From Psammoneis japonica (Eukaryota), in assembly GCA_008632985.1 (NCBI GenBank), contig QPGO01000298.1, forward strand, positions 1 through 64,000: a DNA stretch of 64,000 bases, written 5' to 3'. Position numbers and translations under genes: made by a program. Below are positions 5,966 to 62,711 of this stretch, piece after piece. Each line of letters starts with the position of its first letter. The stretch's first letter is position 1. The notes beneath the pieces are model-generated. The model was not told the origin of the DNA. It ran no database searches and was given only the letters and a program-made list of their open reading frames with translations.

Positions 5966-5969
5966 TTGT

Positions 5970-23370: not shown

Positions 23371-23399
23371 GAGTTTTTGGGTGATGATCTCATGGCAGA

Positions 23400-27490: not shown

Positions 27491-27494
27491 TCAG

Positions 27495-29810: not shown

Positions 29811-31292
29811 CGCAGCATTGTTCATGTGCACCATGGAATCATGCATCTCAGCCCCACTGCAAGCACAAACCATGCAGTGGTTTGCAGCTCAAAATCACCA
29901 ATGCACATGATTGTTGCTCCAAACTGTCAATTTGGTCATGGCACACCAAAAATGACCCGACAGACAATGGCTGAAAATGCAGAAGGCAATGAGATGTCTG
30001 CAACAACAACTTTGTGCATCACTCAATGCAACAAAGTCTGTTTGACAACATGCATGATCAACTTCAGTGGTTTGCTGCATGTCTTTGCACTGCTGCCAGC
30101 TTGTTGATTGTCAGCCTCATTTTTGTGCTTCAATTTGGCATTTGACCCTCTGGCACAAATTGCACATGCAAAGGTCTGCACCAAAAGCCAAGACAGCTGA
30201 GTTTGGGTCTGCCCCTTTGGAGAGCACTGCAAACTTCTTCTGCTGTGTTGTCCTTGATGGCATTGAGAAGGACAAACCCAAACTCACATGTCTCTGTGCT
30301 GGTGGGAACTCCAACCTGCACAGCAAGGTCAGACTGCACTGCAGTTGCTTGAGTTGGCAATGACTCAAGTCTCAGCAGCTGCTGTCTGTGACTGTGCCTT
30401 GGACTTGAACTTCTCACTGGCAGCTGCAGTTGCATCAGTCATTGTCAGTTGATGCTGTTGCCACACCTGTTGCTGCGTCTCAGAAGATTCTTGCTTTGAT
30501 GGCATCAGCAAAGTCTGGCAATGTGCACTCAAGGAACCAAGGTGATTTTGTCTGAGGCTCTGCAGGAAATTGTCACACTTGTTGCCTGGCACGGGAATGG
30601 ATGCAAGCCCCTGTGACCGTTGCAACACCATCCATGCAGCCACATGCACTGTTTCCATGTGGGGCAAGCTCATGCATTTTTGACACAACTTTTGACACAA
30701 CTTCAAAATTTGTCACAACTCTCAAGGTGCACGTCATCTCTGGGCATGTGAAACATGTCTGTGAGGCTTCCAGTGCAAATTCTACACACGGCAAAAATGC
30801 AGTGTTGGTCCACCTGTTTTCAAGAGTTTGGCTGTGATCCAATTCTTCCACCGGGTCACGTGGAAAGAGTGGGTGGACTTCTTGTGTGACTTAGCAAAGA
30901 GGGGCATGGAGAGAAAACAACGCCAGATGAGTGTCGATTGCGTGTTCCCTTCCTGAGCACAAGATCAAGTCATGCAAACCTTCTTTCTCGTTTCTTGTCG
31001 CAGCATTTATTTCTCCATGAAAAGAAGAGTTAGCTCATGTTCGCTGAAAGAGCAACCCCGGTCAAAGTGCACGGTAGGTTCCTAGACCCAAGACGTAAGA
31101 CAAAATCTATAATTGTAATCCCCTAAACTTCTAAACGATGCTCTACCTAGAACTACCCCGATACTTATTTTTACGTCAATATTTTGTGAGTTCACAAAAC
31201 CACAGTCACCCGCAATTCTGCGATTCTCGAGCTCGTCTAGCTCGGTGAAGATGGTCTGCTTATCGTCACGCAAAAAAGTGAAGTTTCAATAT

Positions 31293-32628: not shown

Positions 32629-34822
32629 GAGCCCCTGGCAGATTTATATCTTATTCATTATATTTTTATATAAATGTACTCACATTAATTTATGCATTTG
32701 TACACAAATGCTAATAGTAACAGGAAAAATCCTGAACCACATTCTCCCCTAAAACTCTAACCACCAAAAACAGAGGGTGCGGAAGCGCACTTTTTGGAAG
32801 ACTGCGCACACACCAAAACATCACGCGTTTTGATGACTCGACCATGACGACCTCCCGTTCTTCGTCCCCCACACCACCTGACGTGTCCCCGCCTGCCATG
32901 TCTGATGCGGCAGCCCCTCCTGCATTGGCCGGTGCCATTGCACCCGCTGTCATTGCCCAAACACAGCCGATTTGCCATCCGGAAGATTTGTGCTTCTGTT
33001 CGCCGGATCCGGTGCATGAAACACAAATGCAGCTCGGGGATTAGTCTGCTCCTGCAATTGCGTTCCCAGAGAAACTGGACTTTCATTTGTGCCATCGTGT
33101 TGTGGAAGGTGCTGATGAGCCGTCTCTCAAACGGTCTGGGGCGCAGCTCCCAAACCATGTCAAAAAACAAAAGAAACAATGAAGGCATGGGTTCCGTGAG
33201 CAGCAATGTGCTGGTTGACACTCCTTGCATGGGCATGGGCATGGGCATGGCAGAGGAGCATCTGGGAGGCATGGCAATGGCTTTCTCAGGATGATTCCTG
33301 AGCAGAACCTCCTCCATCTGGAGGTGATTGAGACTTGGTGTCAAGATGAACCGCAGCAACATGTGAAGGAGGATGCAGCCAATGGAATGCGGGCAGAGAA
33401 GGTGCCGGCATGCAAAGCAGCAGCACAGCTGTCGACATGGCACTGGTTTTGAAGGTCCAACAGTGACAAACACAGTGCGTGTTTGCCAAAAGCACGTTGC
33501 CACCTGCCTCCATTTTAGCAACTTACAAAAACAGCACAAAACTGTGAAAGCATGCCTGCCATCTAATTGTCACTCCACATCAGGTTTCTAATTTACAGAG
33601 AACTGCACAATGTGTCTGCACATTCTAAAGATTGGACTGCACTCAAGAGCTGGCCAAGAGGCACTGTTCACGTCCATTGATGTTGCAGGCCAGCAAAGGG
33701 CAGGCAAAGAGCCCACTGAATGCTTGTGCAACATGGGTGTTCACGCTTGCAATGTCTGAAAAATTGATTGCCATGTCTTCACCTGACGGGCTGCAAGTTT
33801 CCTTGAACCGAAACCAGAAAACCATGAACAAACATGGAAAGCACAAGAGCCACAACACCAACACTCGTCCATCAGCAGGCTGAGGTTGCATGGGTTTCCT
33901 GGTTTGCTGTCATCCATTGTGCTCCTTCCAAAGCAAAAACAGTGACAGTGTCAACAGTGCCTGCAGCAGTGAGAGCAGGATCAACAGTGTGGGCATGCCA
34001 GGGGACCGAAGTGCAGGTGCGGCATTGGAATTCATGATGGCATCTGTGGCAGGCGGTGGGGCGAGAATGAAAGAAGTGTGAGCCTTTGGCATTTCATTGT
34101 GGACATCATTGGCAAAAGCCAATGACAGCATCAGCAGCACCTGCGGCAATGAGGGTGGGAGCAACAGCATCGGGCATGCCAGGGGACCAAAATGCAGGCA
34201 CGGCATTGGAATGTGTGACAGCATCTGTGGCAGGCAGTGGGGGGAGAATGAAAGAAGTGTGAGTCACTGGCATTTCTTTGTGGACGTTGTTGGCAAAAGC
34301 CAATGACAGTGTCAACAGTGCCTGCGGCAGTGAGGGCAGGAGTGACAGTGTCGGGCATGCTGGGGGCCCGAAACGCAGGTGCGGCATTGGAATTCGTGAT
34401 GGTGTCTGTGGGAGGTGGTGGAGCGTTCAAACAACAGTGTGAGTTTGCAGCATCTTATTTTGCATGTGTCGCACCCACGAGAACCAGAACAATGACATTG
34501 CCTGTTGCGTCAGTGTCGTCATCAATGGTGTCAACAGGATCAGCGTCCTGGGAAGGCGATGGGGAAGAACCACGAGGCATCATCATGGTCGAGTCGTCAA
34601 AACACGTGTTTTTTGTGTGGAGAAAAAGAGCTGCCAAAAGTGCATTTCCGTGCCCTCGGTTTTTGGTAGTCAGAGTTTTGGGGGAGCTGTGGAGCAGGAA
34701 TTTTTGCTTGTGGAACACACACATGCATGTGGATGTTAACATTGAAACTCAACACACGGCGAAGCCATGCGCGCGCAACCACGAACACACACACAGCTCC
34801 CCTGCCACAGGGGTGGAGCCCA
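32629..34822. mobile_element. MULE-like insert with long subterminal inverted repeats and a probable 9-bp TSD
   Basis: Inverted repeat of about 140 bp at 32720-32870 / 34560-34706. Flanking 9-mers are cgcgcgagc (32620-32628) and tgtgcgagc (34823-34831); the uninterrupted copy has it once. No transposase motif recognised. Confidence 0.6.
33932..34425. repeat. About 181-bp tandem repeat, 2.7 copies
   Basis: Recurring gcaaaa...tgacag...cggcattggaa...tctgtgg...gagaatgaaagaagtgtgag. Confidence 0.9.
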
Positions 34823-35574
34823 TGTGCGAGCAGAGGCAACAAAGCAAAAAACACGGTGTGGGGCGTGGGTCAAACATTGCAACATGACACGGCAACAAGC
34901 AATGAGAAGAATCCCAACTAGACCCAGAAACACATTGCACAAATGTTGTCCAACAGGTTGATCTCATCTGGGAACACCAGCTGGCAGATGAGTGAACGGC
35001 GTTCGCGTTGCTCGCCATGGTGTTGTTGTGCGTTATCGTGAGGTGCGCACGAAGGACGGACATCTATTTTGCCCATGGTGACTCTGTTTTGGTGACAGTG
35101 GAGTTTTAGCTGTGTGCAATCTGGAGACAATTTGAGAAGCGCTTCGCGACAACCTTGTTCGGGACGTTAAATAGAAATTTTTTTACACAGATTTTAAACA
35201 TGTTTCGGGGTGTTCCTCACTTTTTTGAATTTGGGTGTGCTCTTTACAAGACCGCAGCAATGTTGATGACATGCAAAACCGTAAGAGACGAACATAAATT
35301 TATCTTTCATGTGCACCACGTAGACTGTGCACCGGCGGAAAATCCACCGCATGTCAACTCACTCAGCGCAATTCCATGTTCACTCTACTTGCACCTCACA
35401 CACGCACACACGCCGCACAGTCTAACAACCGCGCACACGTGCGCGAGATCATGCGCACAGAGCACATGCGTGCATGGATGTACAGGTGATGAAAAACGCG
35501 AAAATGAACTTGAGAGACTGGTGACGACGATGACTGCAGCATTGGCGCGTCCCTTTTCGGATGCAGAAATGCCA

Positions 35575-37079
35575 CAGGCTCAAGTTCAAGAAATGGGCTG
35601 GCATGTCGTCTCAACGGACAAATGATCAACACGCACATCTTAGGACAATTTTGTGTGTGCCAATTTGCAACCTTTTTGGCGAACATTTGGTCCATCATCT
35701 GTCCGTCAGATTGTGGATTTTCGTGACCCTTCATGCCTTTTTTACCACGACACAGCACGGCACAATGGAAGGTGGGGCATCGGTCACCGACGATTGCATC
35801 AGTCCCTTTCGATGCTCTGAAGGCTCGAACATGTCATCGCCATCTCATTTTTGCCATGGCCGACCTTGCCAAAAGTTGACAGGGTGTGCATGTTTCCACG
35901 TGATTCAGCACTCGTCATTTGAGTTTCCATTTTTCTCACACCAACAACATCATCAACCGTCGTCATTGTTCGCGCAGCCATGGCATCCAGGGAAAAAGAG
36001 AGCGGCACTGCAGGAAAGAAAAAAGTGGCTGTCCTGTTAAAAAAAGAGAGTTGATGATGCTCTCATTCTTTTGACAGCACACATCTTGGTGAGCTCTGAT
36101 GGGAAACGGCTGATGTTTGCTGCAGAATGGCGGCATTCGAGGTGGAACAACCAAAAGTGGCATGTTGGATGCAATTCAGAAGGGATGCATTGAGTCTGTT
36201 GATGCTTGCATTGCAAAACACACCATGAAGGCATGTGACCAGGTGGATGCCGTTGATGGACGAGAAACTCCTGACGCCCACGAGCCTCAAAATGACTCAA
36301 CACCATGCCGTGGTTGGGTGGAGAGAGGCACAAGCTGGCAATGTTGATGTCTGTTCAAGACAACTTGGAGGAAATGAAAGAGCAGTCACGTGTTTTCATG
36401 GAAATGGCAAGTCCAGCAGCTTTCAGTTTTTTTGTCAGCAGCGCAGTTGGCAAAATTTGCATCCATTCACAGCTTCATGTCCTCACAATTCTGTGGTGTT
36501 TGACACCCACTCTCAACATTGGGTGGAACATCATCACATTCTTTGAAATCATCCTCTTCTTCAACATCTCAAAACGACTCAGGTTGCTGTTCCTGCTCTA
36601 GCTAGATTGGAGGAGGAGAAAAAACAAAATTCTCATGATGCACGCAATTTCAATGCTGATGTCCCTGCTTGTGCGCACAAACCACCTGGTGGTTCGTGCA
36701 CATGTTTGGATGCACACGAACCACCTGTGAACAAATCTGAGCACTGTAAATCGGAGGTGGGATCTGCATGTTTGTGCCACTTGAAACTTGTCCACCAAGC
36801 CGGCAGTCATGTGCCGGCCATCCTGAAAAATGTTTTGTGTCAGAGAAAGAGTTCGTCAGGGCCGGCGAACAACACCCCCCCACGATGCAACTAGCACAAA
36901 ATCTACGTAAATGCACAGAAACCAGCACATGGCTTCTGTGCAAATTAGAGCTTGTGAAAAGCAAGCAGGGATGTGCACGCAGAAAAGACAGCCAAAAAGT
37001 GCACAGGCCAACCGCACTCACAGAATGGGATTCACGTGGTGGCCTTCACAACAGCCCATTTCTTGAACTTGAGCGCCTG
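35575..37079. mobile_element. About 1.5-kb TIR DNA element, possibly Tc1/mariner-like
   Basis: Left TIR caggctcaagttcaagaaatgggctg (35575-35600) is the reverse complement of cagcccatttcttgaacttgagcgcctg (37052-37079, 2-nt insertion). Flanks are CA on the left and TG on the right. Confidence 0.65.
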
Positions 37080-37809
37080 TGGAAACGCTGTGCTGCACCT
37101 CTCAAAGTGGCCTCCCGACACACCGCCATGGCATTCTTTTCTTTTTTGGCCCCTTTTCTCCATTGCCATCATCGTCCTCCTTGAACCCATGCACCAGCCA
37201 CAAACTTCCAATGGGCAACTCTCCACAGCAGAACCACAAAAAATGCACCAACCACAACAAACCACAGTGCCCCATTGGTTGCCCCTGAGCATGACAAGCA
37301 TGAAGTGCCAGCCATGTGCGAGGGTCATGAGTCCCAAAAAACAGGGTTTGGGCTGATTTCTGGTGCAAAACCCATGTAGAAAATTCATGCAGAATGTCTT
37401 GTTCACATCGTGCTTTTCCCGTGCTTTGCAAAAAACAGGCCACGACCACAAGGAATTGATTTCAGTCACAACAGTTGACACTTTGTGCACTCACTTTTTG
37501 ACACAAACATGACAATGTCCGCCGTTTGGCAAAATTCCATCATTGGAAAATGTTCACCGTGGCACACCCACGTTGAAGTGTTGATTGAATTTTTCTGAAA
37601 ATGGAGTTTTGTGAAGTGTTCATGCACAGAATCATGTCACTTGTGTAAAAGTCGTTGTGCAAAATGCCAATGGTTTCAGGGAAATGATTCCTTGAGGTGT
37701 CGGTGGAGCAGAGAAGTGCAGCAGAAGCACGAGACAAAAATTGGCCCAAACCCCGATTTTTGTGATTTTTGCTGTGTGCAAAAATTCTGCATAATTTTTG
37801 CACCAGTGC

Positions 37810-40800
37810 ACATGGCTTGTCCACCCTGGAGCCTTGGTGAGGTCATTGCTGGCATCAAAAACACCAGGAACATGTCCAGCAACAATGTGCCCAGCAGCAT
37901 CACTTCCAGTCTTGGATCGCAAAATGCTGGGTGTCAATGTGCCCCGATTGCTTGGTGGGAACTCAGTTGTTGACAATCTTGATGGTGGGCTCGTTGTCCA
38001 CATGCATTGGTGCAGAGTCCTGCTGTGCAAAACCCAACTCAAGAGGAATTGAACAAATGCAAAGAACTGTGTCTTGCTTGACCATGATGCCCACAGTGTG
38101 GCAAAACTTGGCCTCCACACAGAACTCATTGGCATCACTGTCTGAGTCTTGCACTGACACACTGGTGTGAGCATCCACCCAAGAGCCTTGGTGAGGACAT
38201 TGCTTGGATCAACAATGCCAGGAACATGTCCAGCAATGAGAGTGTGCCCAGCACCCCTCCAGTCTTAGATGGCAAAAAATGCTGGATGTCAATGTGCCCC
38301 GATTGCTTGGTGCAAACTCGGTTGTTGAAAATCTTGATGGTGGACTCATTGTCCATCATGTGCACTGGTGAGAGTCCTTCTGTGCAAAACCCAAGAACTC
38401 GTGAGGAATGGAACAAACACAAAGAACCATCTTGGCCATGATGTCGCAGCATGACAAAACTTGACCTCTGCATGACTCATTGTCATCAAAGTCTGAGTCT
38501 TGCACACCAGCACACTGCTGATGCACCAGCTGACATGCACACAGATCAAGTCACAGAGCAGTGGTTGCACAGGTCATTGGCATGAGCAGAAGGCAACCAA
38601 TTGAAAAAAACTCTCTCAATCTTGGGAAGTTCATGAAGACATGGATCCTCCTCAAGCTGCTCATCATGCAGGCAAGTGGGCAAGCAGGCAAAGTGCCATC
38701 CTGTGTGTTTCTTGCAGACAATGTCCCAACACTTGGTCTGATGAAAATGCTTGGCCCACACCCTTCAAAGCAGAGCAACAGACAATGGCCAGAGCAGATG
38801 CAAACTTGGGCAGTGTCACAATGGTGTGCCCAATGTCCAAATGGCAAATGACACATGCACGCAACAATTCACTGAGTGGGGTGCAGCAACCAAAACTGGC
38901 CTCTCTGCAGCAAGGTTGTCAAACTTGCAGTGCCTTCATGAGGGTCAACTCCCTTGCACAACTCATTTGCAGAGGAGTTCACAGACAAAGGAGAAGCCGA
39001 CACGTTCCAGGTCTAGGTGGGACCTCGCACCACTGAACTGTGACATCGACAGTTTTTTGAATCGCGTCGCATGTCGCGCACGTACATTTCTACGTGATTT
39101 TGGCGAAATTTTGCATCATTTTGTGGCACAATTGTCAGGCGATCCATTCAACAACTTTTTTAACATTTTTTTCTTCTGCGCCATTCTCGAGTGTCTTGGG
39201 TGGGCGCACCACAGTTCTCGGCCCGTTCATTTTCTACGTGGCCTGGCACAACCCAAATCTGTGTAGATTCAGCACATTTTGCCCTGCAGAACAGTTTTTG
39301 GGAGTGTTTTCTGGCTCTCGACGCAAAACAACACGCAAAATAACACGGACAATGGCGTTTCGCCGATTTCAAAAATGCGGTTGTTTCTGAGGTGCTTTGT
39401 GGTGTACTCTCAACGGAGTGTCTTGCGTCATGGCATGAGGCATGTGACAAGCTCGAGAGTGCACAGGTTCATGTGGGCAGCTGATGGTGAAAATTCTCAC
39501 TGAAGGTTCGCGTTGACAGCGTCGCTTCTGTTGCATCACGACTGACCTCATGTGTCACCATTCATGCTGTGTGTTTCGTTGAGGCTTTGTGTGTTGATGC
39601 CCGTTTGACTTGCATGTGTTGTCTCTTTCTACATTGTTCTTTTGTTCTGCAGGGTCTCCGTCGTCGCAAGGTGTCCCAGAAACACTTTTCCTCGTCAAGA
39701 ATGTCAATTCTGCAATGCGATGGCCATGGCAATTCCAAAACGAGGCAAAGTCACAGACACAGCATCAGGCTGACTTCACAACAAATGTGGTGATTTGGGG
39801 CTGTGGTGTCAAAAGCTGGACAAGCTCTCAAGAGCTCAGATCCGTCACAGTGCATTTTTGACAATGGCTCTCCCCGCCTCCACTTGGTGATGCGGAGTTT
39901 GATTCGGCAGACCAGTGCATCATGGCTGTTCTGAAGGTTTAGATTGCTTCTTTTGGCTGCAAGGTGGTTCACAAGCTGGAAATGTGTGGCTCACTTGCCC
40001 AATTTGTTGGCCAATGCAACAAACTTAGAGGGTGACAGCCGGGGCAGATGATCATTTTGTCAAGTCTAAAAAGCAGCTAAAGATTGTATGCCAACAAGAA
40101 GAACCAGCTTTAAAATTTGTCATGGGGGTGTAGACTTCACTTCATTGGGGCATCACATCTCCATTGTTGTTCTAGAGTGAACATTGGCTGGTGTTGTTGC
40201 CGCCAACGTGCGAGTTCGCCTTGACAATCGGTTGCACTGTATTCTGAGATTTTGGAATAAAAAACAACTTTTGTTTGCATTGATCCATTATAAGAGAAAG
40301 CTCACTGGCTTCCCCTGGCCCTTTTGGAGCAATCGGGCAAGTGAAAGAGGAGCTGCAGAAAGATGCGGACGATGCCATTTTGATGCGTTGTCATCAGGTG
40401 GTGTCGTCGTGAGGTCGCGTGATGGAGTGCCATGCTTTCTGTTTTGTGCTGCGTCTGTGTGGGAATGTACGTGATTGGCTCTCTGGCAGTTTCTGCGTAA
40501 AAAGTGCACCAGGCGATCTCTGGACCGCCCTCTTGAGAATGGCGCAGGGCAGGCGCATTGTCCAAAACTTTGAGTGTGAACAGAGACACATGTGCTACAA
40601 ACTTGGCCGTTTGTTTTATGTCAAAGACAAACACATCCATTGACCAGAGTGCGAACTGCAGAGCTTGCGCGCAGAATTCTACGGGGCAAATGTCACAAAA
40701 AGTCCCACCTGGGACTGGAACCCATCAGCCATGCCATCCACTGCATCTTCATCTTTGGGCAATCTTGTCCCAGCCATGGGAAACAAACATGCAATCCAGA

Positions 40801-41300
40801 TGTGCATGATGACATGCAATCAAAACAGAATCGTCACATTGATGGATGTCTGCCCCATCAAACACATTGCATGGAACAAAGTTTTTTAAATGGAGAGGTG
40901 AAAATTTGGACAAGTGCTGAAGAGCCTTGCCAATCACTTTGAAAATCTTGGTTGCACGCAACTCATTTGGGCATGCAACAGAGAAATCATCAACCTGGTG
41001 CAAAAGAAACTCCTGTTGTGCATCCATTGTGCCGTGCAATTTTTGAAGGCGTGGCACACTTCTCGACTGGGCTGATGAGAGCAGGGCTTCAGAGCCACTG
41101 AACAATGATCATGTTCTGCTTCTTCATCATGAACCAAAACAACTGCTTTTGGGTTTGGCCTCTCTTGAACAGTGCTGTGAACTTCTTCTGCTGTGCCATG
41201 CTCAACAGCATCGTCGAGGGGCTGCAACCTCAAATCCAGCACGCGCCACTCGGGAGAGATTGGCCCTGCTGGAAGTGACTCCAAAATGAAGCAAGGTCAG
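37810..41300 (-). mobile_element. Ty1/copia (CoDi-type) pol remnant: RT + duplicated RNase H, split by a TIR insertion
   Basis: FLLHQVDDFSVAC (LLRQVDDF), HGWDK, CHLDIGHTIVTLPKFASA (CRPDIGYA..LSKF), ELGFAQQDSAPMHVDNEPTIKIVNN, PTKQSGHID..HFAIQDW and ASNDLTKAPGW. The RNase H segment occurs twice (37821-38174 and 38175-38530). Confidence 0.88.
39003..40722. mobile_element. About 1.7-kb non-autonomous TIR element inserted in the copia RT
   Basis: gttccaggtctaggtgggacc (39004-39024) is an inverted match to agtcccacctgggactggaac (40701-40721). Copia RT sequence continues on both sides. Confidence 0.75.
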
Positions 41301-41632
41301 ACTGTGTTGCCATTGCTTGCATTGTCAACAACAGTCTTGGGGCCTCGAGTGGCTGCTGTCAACCTTCGACTTGCAGCTGCATCCACCATCCATCGCCATC
41401 GATCATCGCTGTCGTTTCAGATGGTTGCTTGGGCATTGCGCATCCAAGGTGATTTTATCAGACGCCCTGACACAAAAATGGCGGGAAAAATTCAAAACCG
41501 AAAATTCGTGCGCCTGTCATAGTATGCGGCTTCGTATGTAGGAATTATACCAATGCATACACAACTGAAAACCCTCACATCACTCGGGCAGACGGTCGTC
41601 AGTAACAACAACACAGCTCGCAGATTTGCACC

Positions 41633-44494: not shown

Positions 44495-45469
44495 GGTGAT
44501 GTCTAGACTCTGTTCTAGGTTTTCGGGCAAAGAAATGAGAATAAGACTTGCGAACTATTAGTTATCATCTCTCTTTCTTATTATCACGTACCTATTCGAG
44601 ACTTGTGATCGATAAAAATGATGTGAGAATTCAATTTTGTGTGAAAAAAAATAAACGGTGAAATGTGCAGGGTTCAAATAATGACTTCGTACTCGTACAC
44701 AGAACACCCGATTTGAGTTTTTCGAATTTGGTGCAGAGAACAATTTCACGAATGTAATGACCTAGTCGACACTGCAATTCTGGATTTTGTGTATGCCGAG
44801 ATCACAATCGAGGTGGGTCTTACCGGTACCGGTTTGTACCTCGCAATCATCTCAAGAATGCAGGGAAACGATGATGACTTTGTGAGCGACAATTTTGTCT
44901 TGGAAATGACCCAAGACTTGCAAAACATCAATTTGGCGCCACGTAAGATCCACGTTGGGTATCTCTATGTCGACAAATGTCCAAAATGTCGCAACGGTGA
45001 CCCCAATTTTAACGTGAAAACACACATGACTGTTTACGCCGTAGGTTACCACGGCAGACAATACGAGGTAATGATCTCACGGATGACTCTCTTAACGGAG
45101 TCACTGAATAACTCCATGACCGAGCGGTGCTTCTTCCTCTTCTCTGTTCATTCTTCCCACCATAACAGTGGTTTTTCGTTTCTCGTTAAAGTGGAGCATT
45201 CTGAGTTCATGGCATGGGCAGGGAAATCACAGGTGCCACCCGAGGAGGGCTGGGCAGGGGCTGGCGTGCCAGAGAGAGCAGCTGGTGGGGAACTGCTTTT
45301 TCCTGGGTCTGGGTGACCACCACAGGAAATTTTGCAGTCTGCATGGCATGCACAGGGGGGGGGGGGTGCTGTGGTGAACTTTGACAAGCTTGACCACACA
45401 GCTTGCACAGACAGAGAGATGGAGGGAGGGGGAGCCATGCGGCGCATCAAGAGAGACAGCAAGCAAGCA

Positions 45470-45470
<1 letters not shown>

Positions 45471-45514
<44 letters not shown>
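45471..45514. repeat. (GA)n microsatellite; shorter ones at about 45857, 48500 and 61557
   Basis: Direct observation. Confidence 0.95.
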
Positions 45515-45515
<1 letters not shown>

Positions 45516-45889
45516 TGGAGATGGCTGGACTGTGTGAGACATTGCATTAAAAAAACAATTCATTGAATCCACTCACCTGCCCTGGTGCACCAGCCGGATC
45601 TTTTCAAAACACCAGAACCTCAACCACACTTTGGCGCGACAGCAGCCTGCTGCTCCTGATCAAGCCACCACAAAAGTCTCACTTCTGACTTTGGCTCAAT
45701 GTTGTTGTGCCTGCTGATTGTCAAATGGTTGGATGAATGCCCAAACTGGTGGCTCCTGCCTCAGCCACTTTCACAATTGTTTGTCACATTTGAAAGAGAG
45801 AGTCGGTTGTGCAGATTGTGCTCATTCGCCGATTTTGTTCATTCATTCATTTAAAAGAGAGAGAGAGAGAGAGAGTTGAAAGGCAACAA

Positions 45890-48390
45890 TGGACACTGCA
45901 GCTGAGACCAGCACCCCAACATGCACACACTTTGATTCAACCATGGCAAACCCTGCCAACCAGCAACCAAGGACACCCCTTGCCGCTGCCACCCAGCACA
46001 CCAGGGGCAACATCGTGTTGCTCCTCCAACCCAAGACAGCATCCATCCTTGAGAAGCTGGTGCTCCAACACCTCCAAATGCAAGCCAAGGCCCACAACAA
46101 AGCCTTTCATGTCCAGCCAATGGTTGACAATGAGAAGTTTGTCCCACACTCAGCCAGAATCAATTTCGAACTTCAAACGTCAAAAAAGCAGCCAAACAGA
46201 GCCAGGAGTTCACAGTGCTGCAAGAGGAAACAATGGCCCTCATTGACCAAACCCAACAAGCCTTCAAAAAGCAAGCTGTCACAGCCACCAAGATTGAATG
46301 TAAAATCCTTTGAGCAGAGACTTTGGAGTCCTGTGTGAAAACAATTTGACTCTTGCTGTGACCGACTGCATCGCCACACCTGTTGACACCACAGCAGTCA
46401 CCCCACTTGACCGCTGCCATGAGACCCTGCTCAAGCAAATCAAGTTTGCAACCTCAACACCTTCACAATAAAAAGTGCAAGACCACAAACAGCATCACAA
46501 CCCTGCCAGCACTGCTGATTGCTCCTGCTGCAAGACCACCCAGCACACAAGAAGACATGGGAACCATTGCCTTTCTTTTCCCAATGAAGCAGCCAGCACC
46601 AACACCAGCACCATGACCATCTGCATCCCAACAAAAGGTCAAAACTGAGCTCAATAAATTCTTTCAAGCACAAAACTGTGTCTTTGTTTCCCCTGGGGAT
46701 GCATGCCTTGAAGCCAAGAAACAACATGACATCAGCCTCCAAATGAAAAAATGGACACGGAGCCCTGCAAGACAGAAGCAACCAAAAACACCAACATGGA
46801 AAGTGATGGACTGCCAGCCATTGACCCCACAACCCTCAAAGGACTTGCTTGTGAGGAAACTGAAAAGAACACAAAAAAGGTTTCCCAACAGGTCAACTTG
46901 CTCTTGCAATGCAACATGCATCAAATCCATGAAACAACAGCTGTCAAACAAGCAGAGGGGCCAAACCACTGCAGTCAGCACCTCAGCACAACAGGAAAAA
47001 AGGCAAAGGTGCCTTGTTGGATCACTTGAGGGAAAACGCCCTTTGCATGACCAAAAAGCCAGCGATTCTAACAACAACACCGCTGGTGCCAACAGAAACA
47101 ATTGCTGTTGCTTCAAATCAAAGCAGCTGTCAAAAAAGAAGCAGCAGGGCTCCGTCAACAATTGGAGCAGGCATTGACATCCACTCAGCTCCAAATCTGC
47201 CATGTGTGCAGATTTGTTGCAGACTCCATCAAGACACTTTGACACAATGCCTGCTTGCACCTCAGCAACATGCCTGCATGGCACTGTTTTGGCAGACTGT
47301 CACATCTTGCCTTCCAAGATTGCAATTCTGCCCTCCAACCACACAAAAATCTGCAATCCCTTCTGGGTCTCAGCCTCAAGTTGTTCCTGCACCTGGTGCA
47401 CAAACAACGACTCAAACAACTCCTTGGCAACTGGCTCAGAAAGCACAAAGCCACCCCAACTGCCATGGAATGCAAGCACCTGACACACCACATCAACACT
47501 GATGATGCACTGTTCCCCATCTTCTGCCTTGCTTTGAAGATGCACAAGCCTCTGCCACTCTGATCCTGCCCCTGATCATCTCTGCAAGTGGCAGCCTCTT
47601 CTGTGGCCTTGACATCTGGGCAGCAGATGACAAACTGCAAAAAGTTTTGTGCAAGCAACCACCCTGTTTTAAAAGTTCATTGGACCTTAAGAATGAACTA
47701 GTCCAGATGCTGGCACCACCAGATTGCCTCCTCTTTGCCTCTGATGCCAAATCCTGCCACTTGAACATCCCAGCAAACAAAGCACTTCAAAAGATTGCAA
47801 CCCATCTGCAACAAAATGAGGTTGCTGACTGCCAAGACATGCCAGTCAAAGCTCTCATTGAAGCCTTCAAACTTGCAATGAACATCAGTGTCTTTGCCTT
47901 CAGCAACACAACATGGCACCAACTGAATGGCACCACACAATGGGCACACGGCACACCACCCGCCAATCAGCTGCGTGCCACACTCTGTGCTGCTGCGCAC
48001 TGCATGAAGCTGCATTCCTGGAGGAGTTTGGCACCAACCTTGTCTTTTGCAGGAGATTCATTGACAATGTCTTTGGCATTTGGAAAACCACTGAACCTGT
48101 GATGGATGACACCCGCCTGGACTGCATTTGCCTCCAGCCAGAACAAAAACAACTGTGATGTCAATTGGGTCATGAGTCTAAGAGCTCACCAAGTGAACTT
48201 CATGAATCTCACAACAACACTCCAAGCTCTCACCTGTGCACTGCTTTCTACAAAAAAGAATGGAGTCAGCACCTGCATGTCCCGTCACACTCAGCTCACC
48301 CACCTGGAGCACTCACCAGCCCAATCATTCCAGCCAGCAGCCAGTGCAAAAGCAAAGATGAAGTTGCTTCACTTTTGCCTGCTTGCTTGA
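45890..48390 (+). mobile_element. Penelope-like retroelement remnant (N-terminal region + RT)
   Basis: LLGLSLK, PLIISASGS, DDKLQK, CFKSSLDL, LLFASDAKSCHLNIP (LFTxDAxSMYTNI), VFAFSNTTWHQLNGT..GTPPA, LVFCRRFIDNVFGIW (YRRFIDD), VNFMNLT and HLHVPSHSAHPPG (YLYIPxHSAHPPG). No GIY-YIG domain seen. Confidence 0.85.
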
Positions 48391-51300
48391 GGCCACAAAC
48401 TCAAAATGAGTGTCTCCACCTCAGCCACTTGTGTCTTCTTGTTTGTCATGTTTGATGGAGAATCTGCTGTGCTGATTCTGTTTGTTTGTTTGAGAGCAAG
48501 AGAGAGAGAGAGAGTCAGGCAATGCATGGACATGCTCCAGCTTCTCTTTTTGAAGTTCACTCATTGCTTGCCAAGCAGAAAAAATGCATTGTGGTGCTCA
48601 TGTCCAAGATTGTCTCTCTTGTCCATGGTGCCACCACACAAGGCTGCAACATGACCAAACAGCACAGAGAAGCAAGAAGTGCCCATTGTGATGATAAAAT
48701 GACTGCCCCTTTCCAATCAGCAGTGTCAAATTTCTTCATTGGTAGAACTGCAATGTCTGGTTTGGCACATGTGGGCATTTTTCCATTTTGTTCAGCAAAA
48801 ACAGCCCGACTTGTGGGTGATTTCAGCAACGTGTTTATCAAGTGTGCAAAATTCTTGCACATCCTCATCATGGGCTTGTTTTGTCCTGTCGGTCAACATG
48901 CAAGTTGCACCACTAAATTTGCCACACTCCAATTGGTCTGTGTGGTTGTTGGCGCACCATGCAAAGAGGTGGACCCAGTTTGGGCACTGACTTTGTGTGG
49001 GTCATCAAGACAAAAACTCATTGAAATGCAACAGCCCCATTTGGCAAAAAGTTCAAGAGATTTTGCCATTTTCTTTGTGGCACACACTGCACCTGCTTTG
49101 CATTGTTGGTTGGTGGTGTGACTTCTGCACACAGCTGCAAAGCTGAAAAAGAAATTGTCAAAAACAAAAGCACTTTGCCATGACAACTGTTGTGCAAAAT
49201 TCCCATGTCACCCAACACAAAATTTTGTTCACAGACAAATGTTTGAAAACGTTCCTCATTTGTGTTTCTGTGGGCATGAGCATTTTTGTTGCTGATGTCC
49301 AAAAGTCAAAAGCACTCTTTGTGCAATGCAACAATCATGCTTTTAAATTGATGACACAACAAACTCTCAACAAACAATTGCTTGCACAACTGAAGAAGTC
49401 TTTGTTGGCTCACTGACACATGAGAACAAACAAAACTTGGCAACAATTGTGTGTTTTGGGTTGGGGTTGAAGCTCCTTCTTTGGGAGTGCTGCTCTCTCC
49501 AACACAAAGAGAAGAGGGTCTTGCTCCTCTGTGCCAGAGCACATTTGCACTTGTGCAATGATCAATTTTGGCCAACGGAGGAGATCTGGTTGGGGAGTGT
49601 GCACAAAATTGTGCACAACAAAATGACCATTTTGGGGCACTTTCGTTTCACACTTCTTGCTGTGACAGGTCTGTGAGGGGCAGTTTCTTCTTTGGCTTCA
49701 TTGACGAGCATGGGCTGTTTGAGCAAAAGATCATGTTGAACCCACAGAGAGGCAGTCGTGAAAGCAAAGAAGGAGCTCCAATTCAAATTTGCTTGACCTT
49801 TGAGCCAACAACAAGAATGAGATCATCAAAAAGCTGGAACTGTGTTGCTTTGTTGCAAATTTTGTCAGTTGCTGGCCCGCCATTCTGTTTTCATGTGAGC
49901 CCCAACAACCCTGTTGGCACATGGCAGATTTGTGATCCAGCTGCATTTTTGGATGATTTCATTGTCTCAGCATTGCCAGCCCACCAGATTTTGGGCTGCA
50001 CTGCTGGAAGTTGTTGAGTGTTTGGAGAGGTGCTGTTTGTTCTCTGAGTGTCATTGTGCTTTGTGACAAGCAGGCACACAAGCACTGGGACCTGGGCACA
50101 CACACAGAGAGTTGCCACAGTGTGAAGCACCTCCCGCTGGCAGCACCTTGGGATGAAGCAGCAGTTGATTTGAACAACCCTTGGACAAGAAAAGCAAGAC
50201 AAGATCCAGGATTAGAAAGTGCAGTTTAATGCTCTGCAACTTGTGTTTGTGTTGTGACAAATTTGGCTGAGAAACATCAAACAGTGTCTGACTTCTTTGA
50301 AAGGGCACTCCACTTTTGGAAAAGTGTCACAGAGAATTCTTTGGCCATCATGAGACTTCCATCTCATTGACCTTTGAATTGATTGTTGCACTGTTTGAAT
50401 CACACTTGCAACATGATTGAAAATTTAGAGGGACAAGATTCTGTGTGTGGGCATGTTTCTGCAATGGCCATCATGAGGGTCATGAGGGGAAGCCCACCTG
50501 ACAGCCATGTTCAGGGTCGTTTCTTGTCACTGACTTGTGTGCTGCTGGAAGACAGTGCTGGTGCTTTTCCATTGCCTTGAATGACATCCTGCCAACATCA
50601 TGGTTGAATTTTATGTCTTGTGACCTCAACAGAATTTTCAAAGGCTGATGGCAAAGGGAGGAAAAAATCATGGTGATGCTCTGGCGGAACACACGCAGCA
50701 GCGCATCCAGTGGTGGAGAGTGGCGAAAGCTGTTGCACATGATCTTTGCCAGCAGATGCAGCAACACAAAGCCAGTTCTCAACCAGTGCTTGCACAAGAC
50801 ATCAAACAGGCATGATGCCTTTGGTGGGATGGTGGACAACATTGCTTTCAAAATGGTGCATCGTCCACTCAATTTGACGTGAGCATGTCACTCCCTTTTG
50901 TCCGAGCACTCCTGTCAGCAAACCTTCTTCTCTCCCCAGACAGACAGCAAATCATGCCAAAGCAACAAGGCAGGTGTCACTTCAGCTTTGAATGAGTAAA
51001 AAAGCAAGGCAGAAATTGTGTGACATCTGTGTTCAAAAGTGCACAAGCACTGTCGATGCCCATCCGTCACTTGCTTCAAACGCAACAAGCCTGTTTGCAG
51101 AGGTGCAAAAACAAGAAACAAAATTCAATGCCTTTGTCACCAACCTGCCCCAAAAAGCTCAATGCACATCAAACATTTGTGGTTGCCTCAGAATGCTGCA
51201 AGCAGCACTGAGCAGAGAATGAAGACTCTTGTTGCAGGGTTGCTGTGAATTGACTTTGCTCGCCGCTGGACACATCAGGCGACGGACTGGTGACTTGCAG

Positions 51301-51454
51301 CTGTTGCTGAGTGTGGCTTTGTTTGGGAGGGCTGGTCAGAGTTTTCAAAGCTGGGTGAAAAAAGTCCGGGAAGAATCAGATGATGAAGTTTGTGATGGCT
51401 GCACTCAAAGCCGAGTGAATCAATGCAGTTGCTGCATGAGCTGGTTGTTTTGGG

Positions 51455-51760
51455 TGTGTCGTGGCCCGTTTTCACATGCACGAGTGGAGGCTTTGTGCAG
51501 ATTCTGCAACCTGCAGTGTCTTGGTTTCATCAGGGGTCCCCATCATGGTTTCAAGCTGCTGGGCATTGGAAATGTTGAAACTGTTGGACCACATGTGGTG
51601 CGTTCTGTGGCGCCATTTGCCGGAGTGCTTTCGCCTCGATGCTCTGGCCAGGACACCGAGAGAACATGCAGTTTTGCTCAGCAGTGCTCTGACTTCTCAT
51701 GGCAATCAGAGCACTGTCAAATGACACATGTCACCACCAGTCCACATTTCTTTCAGGAGC
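51455..51760 (-). pseudogene. Decayed partial paralog of the adjacent gene (aligns to about 52620-52912)
   Basis: Shared gcaacctgcagtgtc, catcaggggtcc, catcatggtttcaagctg, gaaactgttggacca, ccaggacacc and ctctgacttc, with TA and CG sites converted. Confidence 0.85.
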
Positions 51761-52313
51761 TCATGGTGCTTCGTTCGAAGGTTTTCGAAAATTTTTGGGA
51801 AGTTCTAACGTTCACTGTTTTGTGACGATGTTGTGTGCAGGGGTGCGTGCGTGCGTGCGTTGCGTTTCCCACACAGCATGTACTACATTCATACTGTACC
51901 GTACTGTACATAGACTACAATGACATGCTGAATACGCACCCTTTTCGGATGAACGTCATCATTCAGTATCGGTTTTGTGTGTCATGTACACGACATAACA
52001 AATGGTTGGCGCTCGTCCATTGACGAATTACATTACGAAGTATTTAACAAATAATGATTATGTTTCTATGCATTCATATTAGACACAATTATGTGTCCAC
52101 TATGACATTTATTTGATGTCGCAAGAGTATCGGAAAGTAACAAAACAAGTAGTACTTTCTGTGCGATACTCAACTGAAATCCCGCTTTTGGACTCCTTTG
52201 AGTCACAAGATCACAAGTGCATTGAATTGACGACTCAAACTTGCTTCAACCGTACATACAGTAGAGAGGTACATACCGACTGTTTTCCACTCTTTATCCG
52301 TCATCCAGCTGAA

Positions 52314-55410: not shown

Positions 55411-56066
55411 ATATGAGTTAGCCGGGGTAGGGCTAGTTGGTCGCGCACGTTTGGGTTCGATGTGATGAGCAACTAGCCATACCCTGCAGGAAGAGCTGTT
55501 GCTGGCGCGCGAGCAGAAGCAACAAAGCAAAGAACACGGCGTGGGTCAAAACGTTGTAAAATGACGCAACAACAAGCAACGAGAAGAAACCCAACTTGAC
55601 CCATGAATACAGCGCATACATATTGTCCAACCACTTCAATAGTATCTCGTATTCCCAACTTGTAGATGAGGGGACGGCGTTCGCGTTTCTCGCCATGGTG
55701 TTGTTGTGCGTTATCGTGTTGTTTGCGCGCGAAGAACACGGGATCTATTTATCCGATAGTGACTCTGTTTTGGTAATAGTAGATTTTTTACTATATTCAA
55801 TACAGATTCTAAAATGTGTTTCGGGGTGTTCCTCACTTTTTTGAATTTGGGTATGTATATTTTAAAGACCTAAGAAATGTTAATGATATGTAAAACCCTA
55901 AGAGACCTACATAAATTTATGTTCCATGTAGACCGCGTAGATTGTGTACCGGCGGAAAATCCACCGCCTGTCAACTCATCAGTAGTAATTCTACGTATAT
56001 TCTACTTACACCTCACACACGCACACACGCCTACACAGTCTAATAACCGCGCACACGTGCGCGAGA
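55411..56066. mobile_element. Intact, TA-rich copy of the short non-autonomous repeat (about 655 bp) with a terminal hairpin
   Basis: Homologous to 32524-32628 plus 34823-35449. Stem gggtagggctagttg...caactagccataccc lies near the left end. Confidence 0.8.
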
Positions 56067-56329
56067 TAAGGCTATGGACATACTATTTCGTTTTTACTCC
56101 TTAATGTTTATACGTGACCGAAGAATAATATTGAAAAATCAAAAAATCAAAAAATCAAAAAATTCGGGATTCGCAATCCCCTTGCTGCGATGACGATGAC
56201 TGGCGAAACGAGAAGCCTCCTGCTGTCACACGACATGAGCCACTCAACGCAACAATTTATCAAACAACGACCTTCGATCAATGGAACAAAGGTCGAACCT
56301 CCTCCAACTACAAAAGGGATGATCGCAAA

Positions 56330-58155: not shown

Positions 58156-58543
58156 AAAGTTCACTGTCTCTAACATGGGGTTGTGACCAAGTTTGTCTGG
58201 CTCCAACAAGTGCAAATGTTGGAATTCCTGGCCATTGTTCCTTTTAATTTGATCAATTCAAATGTCATCGGACTGTCATCCACTCCATGGATGATCTGCA
58301 TCTCCAAATGCCTCAGCATCGTCAGGGTCTGGGATTGGGAAAATCACAACATTCACTCCATCCGGAGTGGCAGGATGGAGGCCGCCACACTGATGGGTGC
58401 ACCTCCGTGGGATTGCACCTGCAAATCGCAAGTGCCCACCGCTGCTTTGTGCACACAGACCCACTTGTTGTCCGCCACACTGATGGCACGACAGTGTTCC
58501 ATTGGACCACCTGGACATTGCATCTGTGCCAAGGACAAGTGTC

Positions 58544-59460: not shown

Positions 59461-59546
59461 GATCAGCAGTGATCCACTCCCGGCTTGGGAGGTGGTGGCA
59501 GTGATCCGATTTTGAGAGATCTGTCATGACGAAAGTTGTGAAAACC

Positions 59547-60988
59547 GATTCTCAAGAATCCGGGTGCCGATTCTTAAGAATCTGATTTCCGTTGAACGCA
59601 AAATTCGAGCTCGATGTGCGTGCTCAACGGACGATTCACAAGTTCCGCCGTCCTGTTTTCTTGGGGGGGTCATCCCCGCGTTTGTCCCAAAATTGCCGCT
59701 GCATTTGAATGAGGTTTTTTGTGGTGTTTATTTTTGAATGCAAGAATTGTTCACAGTCACACCTGATCGCGCACGAAAACGAGAACCATCACCACCGCGA
59801 CCGAAGCACGACGATGATGACAATCATCGACATTTCTCAAAAACGCAGTTTGCCGTCTACCAACTTTTCATGCATGTGCAATCTTTGACACATGACAAAC
59901 ATAAAATGAATGAGAGTTGGCAGACGGACCACCTCCGTCACAGACTTGTGGCTTGTTGTTTTCACCGCGGTGAAGCACGGTGAAATTCAGGAAAAATCAT
60001 GCAAAATGCGAGCTGTTCGGCCGAATTCGAGCTAAAACAAGTGGCAACCGACCACCCTTAAGAATCGAAGTTCGATTCTTGAGAATGGCTGTCACTGATT
60101 CTTGTGAAAACTCCTGACACATCATTCATTCACCAATTTAAAATTGTGGCGTCACGTGCATTTAACCCCAAAAGAATGGATGTGAATGTAAAGCGATTTT
60201 CGTAAAGACTTCAAAGCTGTGAACGACAATGGCGGCTTTGATGCAAGAAGCGACACCATTCAAGACATTGCGATGAACACTTCAACCTCATTTGACAGTG
60301 CTCAGTTTGTGACACTTGTGAGAGTCTTGCTGTGCTTTGAAAGCCGCTCTGGAGTCGAAAAAACCGTCGAAACACTCATGCGCCGATGTTGTTGTCATGC
60401 TCTCTCGACCGAAAAAGCAATGAAGAAGTCAATTCTTCTCAGATTTTTCGATTCATTAACATGCAAGCTGTCAAGATGCAACACATGGTTGATTGTTGGG
60501 ACTGTTGATTGACTTCTCGTTGACAATGATCGCCATTTTGACTTTGGATTCATGTGACAGATTTTTCACAAGAGTTCCCTTTTCACAAGATTCCAATTCG
60601 TGGCACGAGCTCCGATTCTCAAGAATCGATTTTCACAACAATGGCAATCTTTCGCGCTGTAGAGTCATTGCGTAGAAATCATGTGGGACAGTGCCAAGTC
60701 AAGTCTGTCTGTCTGTCCTTAGTGAATTTTAACTTTGCGAAAAATGGATTTGACTGTTTTCTGATCAGGCGCATTTTTCTTCAACACATTTGCAAAAACA
60801 CGCCTGACCCGACAACAGTCAAGTCCATTTTTGCACAAATTGTGTGAACATGACAGTTTCAGTGCAAAAATGTGTGGATTCTACAGGCGTCCTTAATTAA
60901 TTTGTGGGTCACACGTCACGGGTCATTTTCAAAAGATTCCCATTGATTCGGTCTCCGATTCTTCAAGAATCGTCGATTCTCAAGAATC
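59547..60988. repeat. Non-coding element carrying 7 copies of the palindrome GATTCTTAAGAATC or variants
   Basis: Copies at 59547, 59569, 60057 (partial), 60074, 60614, 60957 and 60975. Confidence 0.8.
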
Positions 60989-62711
60989 GTCGTAACAGAT
61001 CCAATGGATCCACAAGTCGTCGTGTGTCGTGCGTGTGTGTGTGTTGTTCGTGGGTGCATGTCCGTCCTTCGTCTCAGGCGAGGAAGGCCTGTGCACCCGC
61101 GTCGCACCCCGTCCCCTCAGGTGCTGTTGTCAAGGTTTTTTCCGCACTTTGGGTGCAATTGTGACACTCAACTATGGCCACAATTCTTGTTTCGCAATCA
61201 TGACGAGAGAAGCTTGATTGTCACTTGCTTCATTGTGCCAGTTTGTTCTTTGTTTTTCTTGTGTCTTTTTGGGAGACTCTCCTTGCAAGGAGTGGCACAG
61301 CTGGCGAGAGATGTGATCGAGAGACATTCACACATGGGGCAAAGCTGCAAGAAATGTTTTGGGAAATGTGCAGAGAAAGTGCTTCACCCGATGCAACCAA
61401 ACAGTTCAAAGAGAATGCAAGAAACATGATGATGCCATGCACCACTCTCGGGGAGCGCCACTCTCGGGGAGAGACGACTTTCTTGTGTGTGTGCTGCTGG
61501 GCAAAAGTTGCCACTGGCAGCACACACATTTGAACCTCGCTGTTGTGCTGCTTGCACTCTCTCTCTCTCTCTGTCCTGCTTTGATGGTGTGCTGCAGGGG
61601 TGAACAAAAAGCAACAGTGTGCTCTGCCACAAGCCATTTGGACCTGCTCCTGCCTTCGTTGGGCATGCTGCTGTGCTGCTCCCATGCTGCTCCTCCTGCT
61701 GAGGACAATCTTCCTTTGCCCAGTGGCACTTCCAAATGGGGTTGCAGATGGAAACCCTGATCAAGTGTCCTGCTTTTGTGTGTGGTGGTGGCACGTCATC
61801 TCTCTGTCTTCTTCTTCTTGGAGTGCTCTTGCGCAGCTGTGATGATGGCATGCACACACACAAACACCAGACACACCAGCCACTCTGCTTTTCAGAGGCT
61901 CAGATGACAGCTCCACACTCTCTGCAGCAGAGCCACTCTCCATTGTGAGTCCATGCGTTGACCGACATGCGTGCTCGCCACGAACACCAGGTCACCTCAC
62001 AGACTCTCAGAGAATTCAGACAGATGGTGTGTTCTTGTGCCCTCTGGCATGTGTTGTGTAGAAGTCTGTGCACAAACTTTTTTGTGCTTGTAAAAATGTG
62101 ACACATCCACAAGAGCACCGGAACACATTGACTGCTGCATGTGACCCCAGCGCACAGTTTGTCTGCATTCTCCTCTGAGAGTCTGGTGTGAGGTGACCCG
62201 GGTGTGTGAAGTGCACTTGCATCAGTTTTTATGCTCAGACTCATGATGGAATGTACTGCAGAGCAGCAACAAGAGCAAGCAAGAGGTGTGAATCCTGACC
62301 ATGTTGCAAAGGTCACCTGCAGGCAGCCACAGGCTGCTCTGCCAGTTTTTGGAGAAAATTTGCCAAAGAAGACACTGCTGCTGTGTTTCGACGATTTCGA
62401 ACCCCCCCCCAACTCTGCATCATCAAAACCCTTTATGAGCCTGGTTTCCCATGCCCTCTAAGCCAAAGCCAATGAAAATAAGAAAACTGTTCAACATGGA
62501 GAATCAAAAAGGTGGCTTCTCCTGTGGAACCGTGTGCGATGCGGGCAATGCAAGACGAGCGCGACAGACGGACATACAGAAAAAATCGAAAAAGCCGCGA
62601 CGACAACATCCAGAAGCCAGGAGCGATGGCCATGAACCGGCAGCGGCGGCACTTTGTTGAACCCACACAACATCTTTCGACCTACTAGTACCCTCCACTT
62701 ACTGTTCCATC

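Follow-up and report, generated by a model that had tools for sequence, protein, structure and literature searches.

Nested depletion of TpA and CpG in a 64-kb stretch of the diatom Psammoneis japonica points to two mutational processes

Introduction

The one report of hypermutation directed at TpA in invading DNA is a 2026 preprint on the chlorarachniophyte Bigelowiella natans (Mettrop et al. 2026, bioRxiv 10.64898/2026.01.13.699255). In the sections of the preprint considered here, 230 of the 231 mutations recorded in mutation-accumulation (MA) lines are A>G/T>C changes, all at TpA. They affect integrated DNA of nucleocytoplasmic large DNA viruses (NCLDV) and virophages and arise at ~6e-7 per site per generation; an ADAT2-like deaminase is proposed there as the candidate agent. 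The words CpG, 'trinucleotide' and 'context' have 0 occurrences in its main text. As for diatoms, the methylome of Cyclotella cryptica contains, according to the part of the published account used here, repeat islands of up to 30 kb that are densely CpG-methylated beside unmethylated gene blocks (PMC5124317). The present work concerns 64,000 nucleotides of the diatom Psammoneis japonica (GenBank assembly GCA_008632985.1, contig QPGO01000298.1, positions 1 to 64,000; hereafter the window), in which long domains depleted of the TpA step (TA) alternate with gene islands and have variously kept or lost the CpG step (CG). A full-text literature search yielded the B. natans preprint, but no paper that describes such hypermutation in a diatom or relates it to the loss of CpG.

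A sequence-only reading of the window had listed seven segments in which TA seemed largely gone and CG common, singling out 59520–61150 (the focal segment), and had explained them by two processes, TA conversion being either faster or broader than the decay of methylated CpG. The analysis below follows up that proposal.

Results

Depletion of TA and CG along the window

The window was analyzed using a 400-bp profile and two segmentations with hidden Markov models (HMM), one based on the TA fraction, TA/(TA+TG+CA), and the other on the CG fraction, CG/(CG+TG+CA). It has 48.6% G+C, with observed/expected ratios (o/e) of 0.27 for TA, 0.62 for CG and 1.51 for both CA and TG. According to the HMM analysis, six TA-depleted domains (Table 1) are separated by gene islands of ordinary composition (o/e: TA 0.63, CG 1.05, CA/TG 1.15). 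TA-low DNA amounts to 41,963 nt (~66% of the window), a total that takes in ~1.2 kb of short TA-free runs within genes; its TA o/e is 0.05–0.10 and its CA/TG o/e 1.5–1.9. Within this DNA, 24,498 nt are strongly CG-depleted (CG o/e 0.19), 14,735 nt are CG-intermediate (o/e 0.64) and 2,730 nt are CG-normal (o/e 0.94). DNA that is CG-low but TA-normal makes up only 151 nt, i.e., 24,498 of the 24,649 CG-low nucleotides fall in TA-low DNA. CG loss is nested in TA loss. The sequence-only reading had staked itself on the two depletion profiles not being co-extensive after correction for base composition; the comparison was run and came out negative for co-extension, and the objection fails because o/e ratios already correct for base composition.

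All seven listed segments are TA-depleted, with TA fractions of 0.025–0.089 compared to 0.229 in gene islands (p from 7e-4 to 4e-19). They also stay CG-rich: their CG fractions of 0.22–0.30 exceed the 0.045 of the CG-depleted cores (p from 5e-9 to 1e-40), gene islands standing at 0.29. The three cores quoted in the sequence-only reading are indeed poor in both steps (TA o/e 0.01–0.06, CG o/e 0.09–0.12). In the focal segment, 19 TA and 92 CG were counted, whereas 2000 mononucleotide shuffles gave 124 ± 8 TA (minimum 97) and 82 ± 7 CG. The wording that TA is "largely gone" from the seven segments holds as regards depletion, but they are less TA-free than the cores (pooled o/e 0.18 vs 0.03), and five of the seven lie significantly above the core TA level. 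Their description as domain edges fits some of them; 59520–61150, 34990–35900 and 39050–39700 lie inside domains according to HMM. The CG-poor kilobase at 61484–62525, for instance, stands between the focal segment and the right boundary of its domain. CG-rich blocks cannot all be equated with domain edges, since HMM shows internal blocks and the focal block is high-copy.

TA depletion begins and stops within a few bp, at the ends of elements; one such boundary is located between 32758 and 32762. At six boundaries, TA and CG depletion are co-terminal to ~250 bp or less (TA/CG positions 1059/1086, 9690/9814, 31004/30849, 41450/41209, 45192/45192 and 62671/62525). At some margins CG o/e tapers over 0.3–1.5 kb (18.4–20.2, 32.8–33.4 and 51.0–51.8 kb); at the margin of the domain that starts at 18518 it drops gradually from 0.98 to 0.23 across 18400–20200. 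The lag of CG behind TA is seen mostly at left edges (3789, 18518, 32762 and 56132, and also 4), and the co-terminal edges are five right ones and one left one (45192), a number too small to call. The largest domain contains a CG-intermediate island (23996–24982) 5.5 kb from the nearest edge (18518), which may represent a further insert of younger age. The cores have an excess of GC steps (1.21 vs 0.99), which we read as the product of TAC-to-TGC changes; CT/AG steps are likewise somewhat raised there.

Comparison of edited and unedited copies

The direction of the changes can be followed in homologous copies. The AT-rich repeat R is present as a partly edited copy A and an unedited copy B (Table 1). 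At the 45 TA sites of copy B, copy A has CA in 13 cases, TG in 10 and TA in 8; kept and edited sites are interspersed. CG counts are 36 in copy A and 34 in copy B, i.e., there is no net loss. The left part of repeat R at 32524–32628, which lies outside the domain, matches copy B at 99 of 104 positions and keeps 6/6 TA. Copy B itself is located only 65 bp from a TA-depleted domain. As for its structure, the copy made up of 32524–32628 and 34826–35449 is split by a 2.2-kb insert (32629–34825) with 145-bp inverted arms (32725–32869 / 34561–34704).

Both losses are seen in the copy of 52648–52915 that is located inside a domain, at 51483–51764. The source is unedited; the edited piece reproduces an open reading frame (ORF) of unassigned kind. 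Seven of the ten source TA became CA (5) or TG (2), and the 20 source CG became TG (8), CA (5) or CT (5), so that 13/20 went to TG/CA. The CG-to-CT class (TCG to TCT) is an unexpected transversion. Accordingly, the part of the sequence-only reading that invoked two processes stands: the pairs show TA changed to TG/CA without net CG loss, and elsewhere both losses occurred.

Duplicates within domains differ chiefly by double mismatches with TG in one copy and CA in the other, which make up 16/22, 18/21, 3/3 and 5/10 of the adjacent double differences in four comparisons. Such a pattern is to be expected if an ancestral TA or CG was converted separately in the two copies. In the repeats at 18974 and 19838, 12 of the 22 differences are CpG transitions. 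In most 1-kb bins TG is about as frequent as CA, which indicates that both strands are targeted. Strand bias, considered as a pointer to a single-stranded substrate, was rejected on the same grounds. Judging from the aligned copies, TA became TG or CA on both strands, and CG likewise became TG or CA.

Copy number and variants of the focal segment

The focal segment coincides with a nest of small inverted-repeat elements resembling miniature inverted-repeat transposable elements (MITE) or foldback elements. Its inverted arms include 59535–59560 / 60614–60639 (26 nt, 88%); the outer arms were read by eye. A search of sequencing runs gave three, all of one sample and study and with no RNA run listed; copy number was estimated for 45–64 kb from contigs of a public run. 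The summed contig depth is 3100–7600 over 59582–60849 and ~60–110 in most other bins; in the core at 45–51 kb it is 42–199. This contrast identifies the focal block as one copy of a high-copy family and suggests that the cores are unique relics; its high copy number makes the family probably young. Other copies of the family are without ~397 bp (59660–60058).

Other copies have TA where the focal copy has TG/CA at 15 of the 29 listed variant sites in 59513–61036, and CG where the focal copy has TG/CA at 8 of them. At 2/29 sites the TA change is reversed in direction. By this comparison, the focal copy is heavily TA-edited, with CG loss only begun. For the most part, the CG-rich blocks of the window are separate and presumably younger elements, and some of these lie within domains.

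A TA-edited LINE copy and its relatives

Another TA-poor, CG-rich block is a 5'-truncated copy of a non-LTR retrotransposon similar to long interspersed nuclear elements (LINE). In the tblastn analysis, matches of nine relatives of ~900–1300 aa were confined to positions 6007 to 3870 of the minus strand and corresponded to protein positions ~438–1196 of a 1197-aa relative (P0100). Pfam recognized RVT_1 in this frame (E = 1.6e-6). At 3900–5300, o/e is 0.10 for TA and 0.72 for CG, and the 3' end of the element coincides with the TA boundary at 3789. The 290-aa reverse transcriptase frame contains 0 Tyr compared to a median of 2.3% in 150 relatives; the CWY motif of relatives reads CWH, and the Y of YxDD reads C. 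Such replacement of conserved Tyr by His or Cys is what the change of TAY to CAY/TGY (Y, pyrimidine) predicts. At 4001–6000, across the LINE fragment, GC skew is very strong (+0.5), and the minus-strand ORF of the fragment is proline-rich.

Among 43 metagenome loci with relatives of this LINE, three are TA-poor and CG-normal, with TA/CG o/e of 0.11/1.00 (L023), 0.21/1.02 (L037) and 0.31/0.98 (L039). L023 was aligned with its unedited relative L011 (75% identity, 3533 columns). Changes were found at 105 of the 145 aligned TA (56 to CA, 49 to TG) and 6 TA were kept; the total number of TA fell from 146 to 12 (134 lost, ~92%), and CG numbers were 202 and 203. The existence of TA-depleted, CG-normal environmental relatives indicates that the editing occurs in other organisms too.

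Sequence preference and relative rates

The edited fraction of TA sites depends on the base that follows A: 54/117 for C, 44/115 for T, 19/79 for G and 11/61 for A. TAY is edited in preference to TAR (R, purine; p = 4.6e-5), and the base at −2 is flat, with no effect (window-wide; L023 vs L011). Because TAY is favored over TAR, residual TA piles up in TTAA (4.4x enrichment) and CTAA/TTAG (2.5x); in ATAT it is 0.

Residual TA and residual CG are correlated (Spearman 0.52, p = 1e-6, 78 windows). The TA fraction is 0.014 where the CG fraction is below 0.15 and ~0.037 above that value, and this floor of ~0.014 is reached before CG is halved. For the pooled segments, the ratio of rates is ln(0.18/0.59)/ln(0.90/1.04) = ~8. 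On this reckoning, TA loss would be roughly 8 times faster than CG loss or more, i.e., about an order of magnitude per site. A single ratio applied to every segment proved an oversimplification, with L023 and the LINE copy as misfits. Near-total TA loss with little or no CG loss in these two elements suggests that unequal methylation may add to the effect of age.

Genes and open reading frames

Pfam assigned genes of the islands to RING/PA, DAGAT acyltransferase, PEMT-like, HMG-box, helicase-associated-domain (HA) and chlorophyll a/b-binding (light-harvesting) proteins, one of each. These genes sit in long, almost unbroken ORFs. Named homologues of the DAGAT ORF come from Epithemia, Entomoneis, Attheya, Skeletonema, Thalassiosira, Nitzschia and Dactyliosolen; the weakest named homologue is from a nematode, and all other named ones are from diatoms. 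Identity is 50% with the best named homologue and 61–67% with the best unnamed ones. Together with the HA-domain and light-harvesting genes, these homologues mark the DNA as that of a diatom, as distinct from Bigelowiella. A 642-aa ORF has only four distant relatives, with 26–32% identity. The chlorophyll a/b-binding gene at 54406–55298 (minus strand) is split across two overlapping frames, probably due to a short intron or a frameshift.

Within the TA-poor domains, the LINE reverse transcriptase was the sole Pfam match with E < 1e-3 among 150 + 32 stop-to-stop ORFs; the next-best match, DUF2325, had E = 0.0016 and 19 bits compared to a cut-off of 33.6. No viral domain or hallmark was found in the Pfam scan of the ORFs of the window, and the Rfam and tRNA scans of the window gave no matches. 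TA-free DNA has neither TAA nor TAG on either strand, which leaves TGA as the sole stop codon and therefore produces long spurious ORFs, of 100–300 codons in all six frames. The window contains 230 ORFs of at least 100 aa, which makes it a trap for gene callers.

Table 1. Coordinates of the domains, repeats and elements discussed in the text
Feature	Position	Strand	Remarks
TA-depleted domain, cut by window start	4..1059	.	HMM; CG-depleted part 323–1086
TA-depleted domain	3789..9690	.	HMM; CG-depleted core 6478–9814
5'-truncated non-LTR (LINE-like) retrotransposon copy	3790..6040	-	TA-edited, CG-rich; tblastn and Pfam
TA-depleted domain	18518..31004	.	HMM; CG-depleted cores 19926–23993, 24986–30849
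TA-depleted domain, patchy	32762..41450	.	HMM; CG-depleted cores 33144–34323, 37182–38986, 40687–41209
Repeat R copy A, partly edited; high-copy ~660-bp repeat	34826..35449	+	Compared with copy B
TA-depleted domain	45192..51879	.	HMM; CG-depleted core 45192–51257, single-copy depth
Edited, CG-losing copy of 52648–52915, inside domain	51483..51764	+	TA 0 vs 10, CG 6 vs 20
Repeat R copy B, unedited	55411..56067	+	TA o/e ~1.0; depth 2300–5000
TA-depleted domain around the focal segment	56132..62671	.	HMM, TA fraction 0.037; left boundary sharp at 56132
Nest of small inverted-repeat elements (MITE-like or foldback)	59503..61011	.	Repeated palindromic CGATTCTYRAGAATCG motif; high-copy family
Focal TA-poor, CG-rich segment	59520..61150	.	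TA o/e 0.15, CG o/e 1.12, CA/TG o/e 1.40/1.42
Strongly CG-depleted core, right end of 56132–62671	61484..62525	.	CG fraction 0.059; CG o/e 0.24–0.37

Discussion

The explanation that we favor, with a probability of roughly 60%, is that two processes act on transposon DNA: fast TpA-specific A-to-G editing and a slower decay of presumably methylated CpG. Gene islands would alternate with islands of transposon relics, and both processes would act on the latter. The first process is a TpA-specific transition, TA to TG or CA (A to G on either strand), that prefers TAY, runs near completion and ends within a few bp of the element limits. The second is a slower CG-to-TG/CA decay, which we attribute to deamination of 5-methylcytosine on the grounds that CpG methylation of repeat islands is established in other diatoms. 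The direction and specificity of the two changes, the nesting of CG-poor in TA-poor DNA, the sharp boundaries and the contrast in copy number are observations, to which the enzyme, the methylation and the role of age are added as proposals. Since the first process would be faster per site, recent insertions should already be TA-poor and still CG-rich; the candidates for such recent copies are the MITE-like nest at 59.5–61.0 kb, the truncated LINE at 3.8–6.0 kb and the repeat at 34.8–35.4 kb. Old single-copy relics would have lost both TA and CG. In that case, the uncoupling of the two losses would mostly reflect the different ages of the pieces of a mosaic, to which a gradual fading of CG loss at some domain margins is added.

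As for the agent of the first process, deaminases of tRNA A34 have as their natural target an A that follows the invariant U33, and the triplet on which bacterial TadA works is UAC. Because such a substrate would fit the TA(Y) preference, the candidate enzyme is a TadA/ADAT2-type DNA adenine deaminase.

Several points weigh against the two-speed explanation. CG loss lags chiefly at left edges (4 or 5 of the 6 domains), which age alone does not predict. The LINE copy is near the TA floor (0.025, p = 0.09 vs core) yet keeps its CG, and L023 has lost ~92% of its TA without net CG loss, so that a fixed rate ratio misfits; the CG retention of both could mean that their DNA is simply unmethylated. 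Methylation as the cause of CG loss is assumed by analogy with other diatoms, and the cores are taken for transposon relics by deduction, because the ORFs of the domains have no family matches beyond LINE. In addition, summed depth counts every contig with at least 90% identity and indicates age only roughly, and the runs may represent the assembly's own source sample and so are not independent. The variant sites compared are the 40 listed out of 236, including the 29 in 59513–61036.

The alternative that survives best, although we regard it as unlikely, is a difference in targeting: TpA editing would affect all transposon or foreign DNA and CpG methylation and decay only part of it, the CG-rich blocks being unmethylated whatever their age. 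L023 (134/146 TA lost, CG 202 vs 203), the LINE copy (TA at about the floor, CG o/e 0.72) and the margins where CG tapers over 0.3–1.5 kb beside a sharp TA boundary agree with it. It accounts less well for the focal copy, in which CG decay is under way (8/29 sites are CG in other copies), for the correlation of residual TA and CG, for the high copy number of the CG-rich focal block compared to the single-copy core, and for the six boundaries that are co-terminal for TA and CG. In terms of the sequence-only reading, which had left "faster or broader" as a choice, the high-copy focal family and the residual TA–CG correlation give better support to faster, and broader is retained as its rival.

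Editing before integration is improbable as the main route, given an edited DNA-type element, targets on both strands and one half-edited copy. RNA, cDNA or free DNA would be modified by ADAR-like or APOBEC-like enzymes, and elements would arrive TA-poor and lose CG later in the chromosome. The sharp TA boundaries that match element ends, e.g., the LINE 3' end near 3789, would follow naturally, as would the unedited state of repeat R copy B at 65 bp from a domain. However, the focal inverted-repeat element is of DNA type with no recognized RNA intermediate, the strands are affected about equally (13 CA vs 10 TG in repeat R, 56 vs 49 in L023), and kept and edited sites are interspersed in the half-edited copy A. 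In B. natans, moreover, it was resident single-copy DNA, already integrated, that mutated while the cells grew by mitosis, as far as the sections of the preprint considered here report.

A single deaminase of dual specificity, converting A in TpA and C in CpG at differing efficiencies, seems very improbable. The edited base is 3' in TA and 5' in CG, so that the contexts differ; TA was lost without CG loss in L023 and repeat R; and ordinary decay of 5-methylcytosine in methylated diatom repeats accounts for the CG loss. These observations outweigh the facts that both changes yield TG/CA, that CG-poor DNA lies inside TA-poor DNA, that six boundaries coincide and that ADAT2 enzymes deaminating both A and C are cited in the B. 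natans preprint (bioRxiv 10.64898/2026.01.13.699255, in the sections considered). Finally, the possibility that no mutation took place, the domains being TA-poor from the start, as foreign DNA or DNA of odd composition, or else an artefact of assembly or sequencing, is negligible in spite of most cores being without recognizable homologues: it is contradicted already by five comparisons of homologous copies, in which sites with TG/CA in the domain copy have TA in the partner that escaped editing, as well as by an encoded LINE protein without any Tyr codon and by public-run contigs that reproduce the sequence.

Returning to fast TpA editing followed by slower CpG decay, what is new in this locus is the nesting of CG-poor within TA-poor DNA, the relative rate and the sequence preference. 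Where the enzyme is concerned, the preference for TAY directs attention to deaminases of the TadA/ADAT type, which act naturally on U33-A34 of tRNA. More tentatively, and at somewhat less than even odds, diatoms may possess a DNA-level adenine-editing defence that strips transposon DNA of almost all TA, prefers TAY, is base-pair-sharp, works independently and ahead of CpG methylation and is the same as that of Bigelowiella. If true, this would be an ancient counterpart of fungal repeat-induced point mutation (RIP) spanning the SAR lineages (Stramenopila, Alveolata and Rhizaria), and the fast TA loss combined with slow CG loss would provide a two-speed clock for dating insertions. If general, the editing would be a major unannotated force on the composition of diatom genomes, repeat detectability and gene prediction.

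Comparison with known systems

The alternation of gene-rich and repeat-rich blocks resembles that in C. cryptica and in other diatom methylomes cited in PMC5124317, and in the window the repeat-rich blocks have lost CG to TG/CA. The part of PMC5124317 considered makes no mention of a TpA effect. Editing of retroelements by ADAR and APOBEC (PMC4866542, in part) likewise is a deaminase hypermutation fossilised in transposon copies, and ADAR prefers a 5' U. However, it acts on RNA or cDNA, is strand-specific and affects retroelements only, whereas both strands and a DNA-type inverted-repeat element are affected in P. japonica.

Fungal RIP, as in Neurospora, likewise consists of dinucleotide-specific transitions that destroy transposons on both strands and create compositional domains. 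In its chemistry it is a mirror image: RIP converts CpA to TpA and enriches TA, whereas here TA is destroyed and CA/TG are enriched. Furthermore, RIP mutates both duplicate copies, whereas repeat R copy B and the source at 52648–52915 are untouched.

The closest parallel is B. natans, with which the locus shares the target and the products, TpA to TpG/CpA on both strands. Editing leaves TA-depleted, CA+TG-enriched clusters in both. In the preprint sections considered, it is confined to non-host DNA beside unaffected genes. The same may hold here, where the recognizable edited sequences are a LINE, the MITE-like nest and the dispersed repeat R; most cores are without recognizable origin, and one edited piece copies an unassigned ORF. 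TA-poor genes of B. natans are reported there to be enriched for reverse transcriptase and transposase domains, and in P. japonica a LINE is edited. The mutation was seen ongoing in the MA lines of B. natans, whereas here it is deduced from the comparison of copies. The lineages are a diatom (Stramenopila) and a chlorarachniophyte (Rhizaria), and the extent also differs, with ~66% of the window at TA o/e 0.05–0.10 compared to 124 clusters in ~95 Mb reported for B. natans. The NCLDV insert described in the same preprint has a TA o/e of 0.45, i.e., a milder depletion than that of the P. japonica domains.

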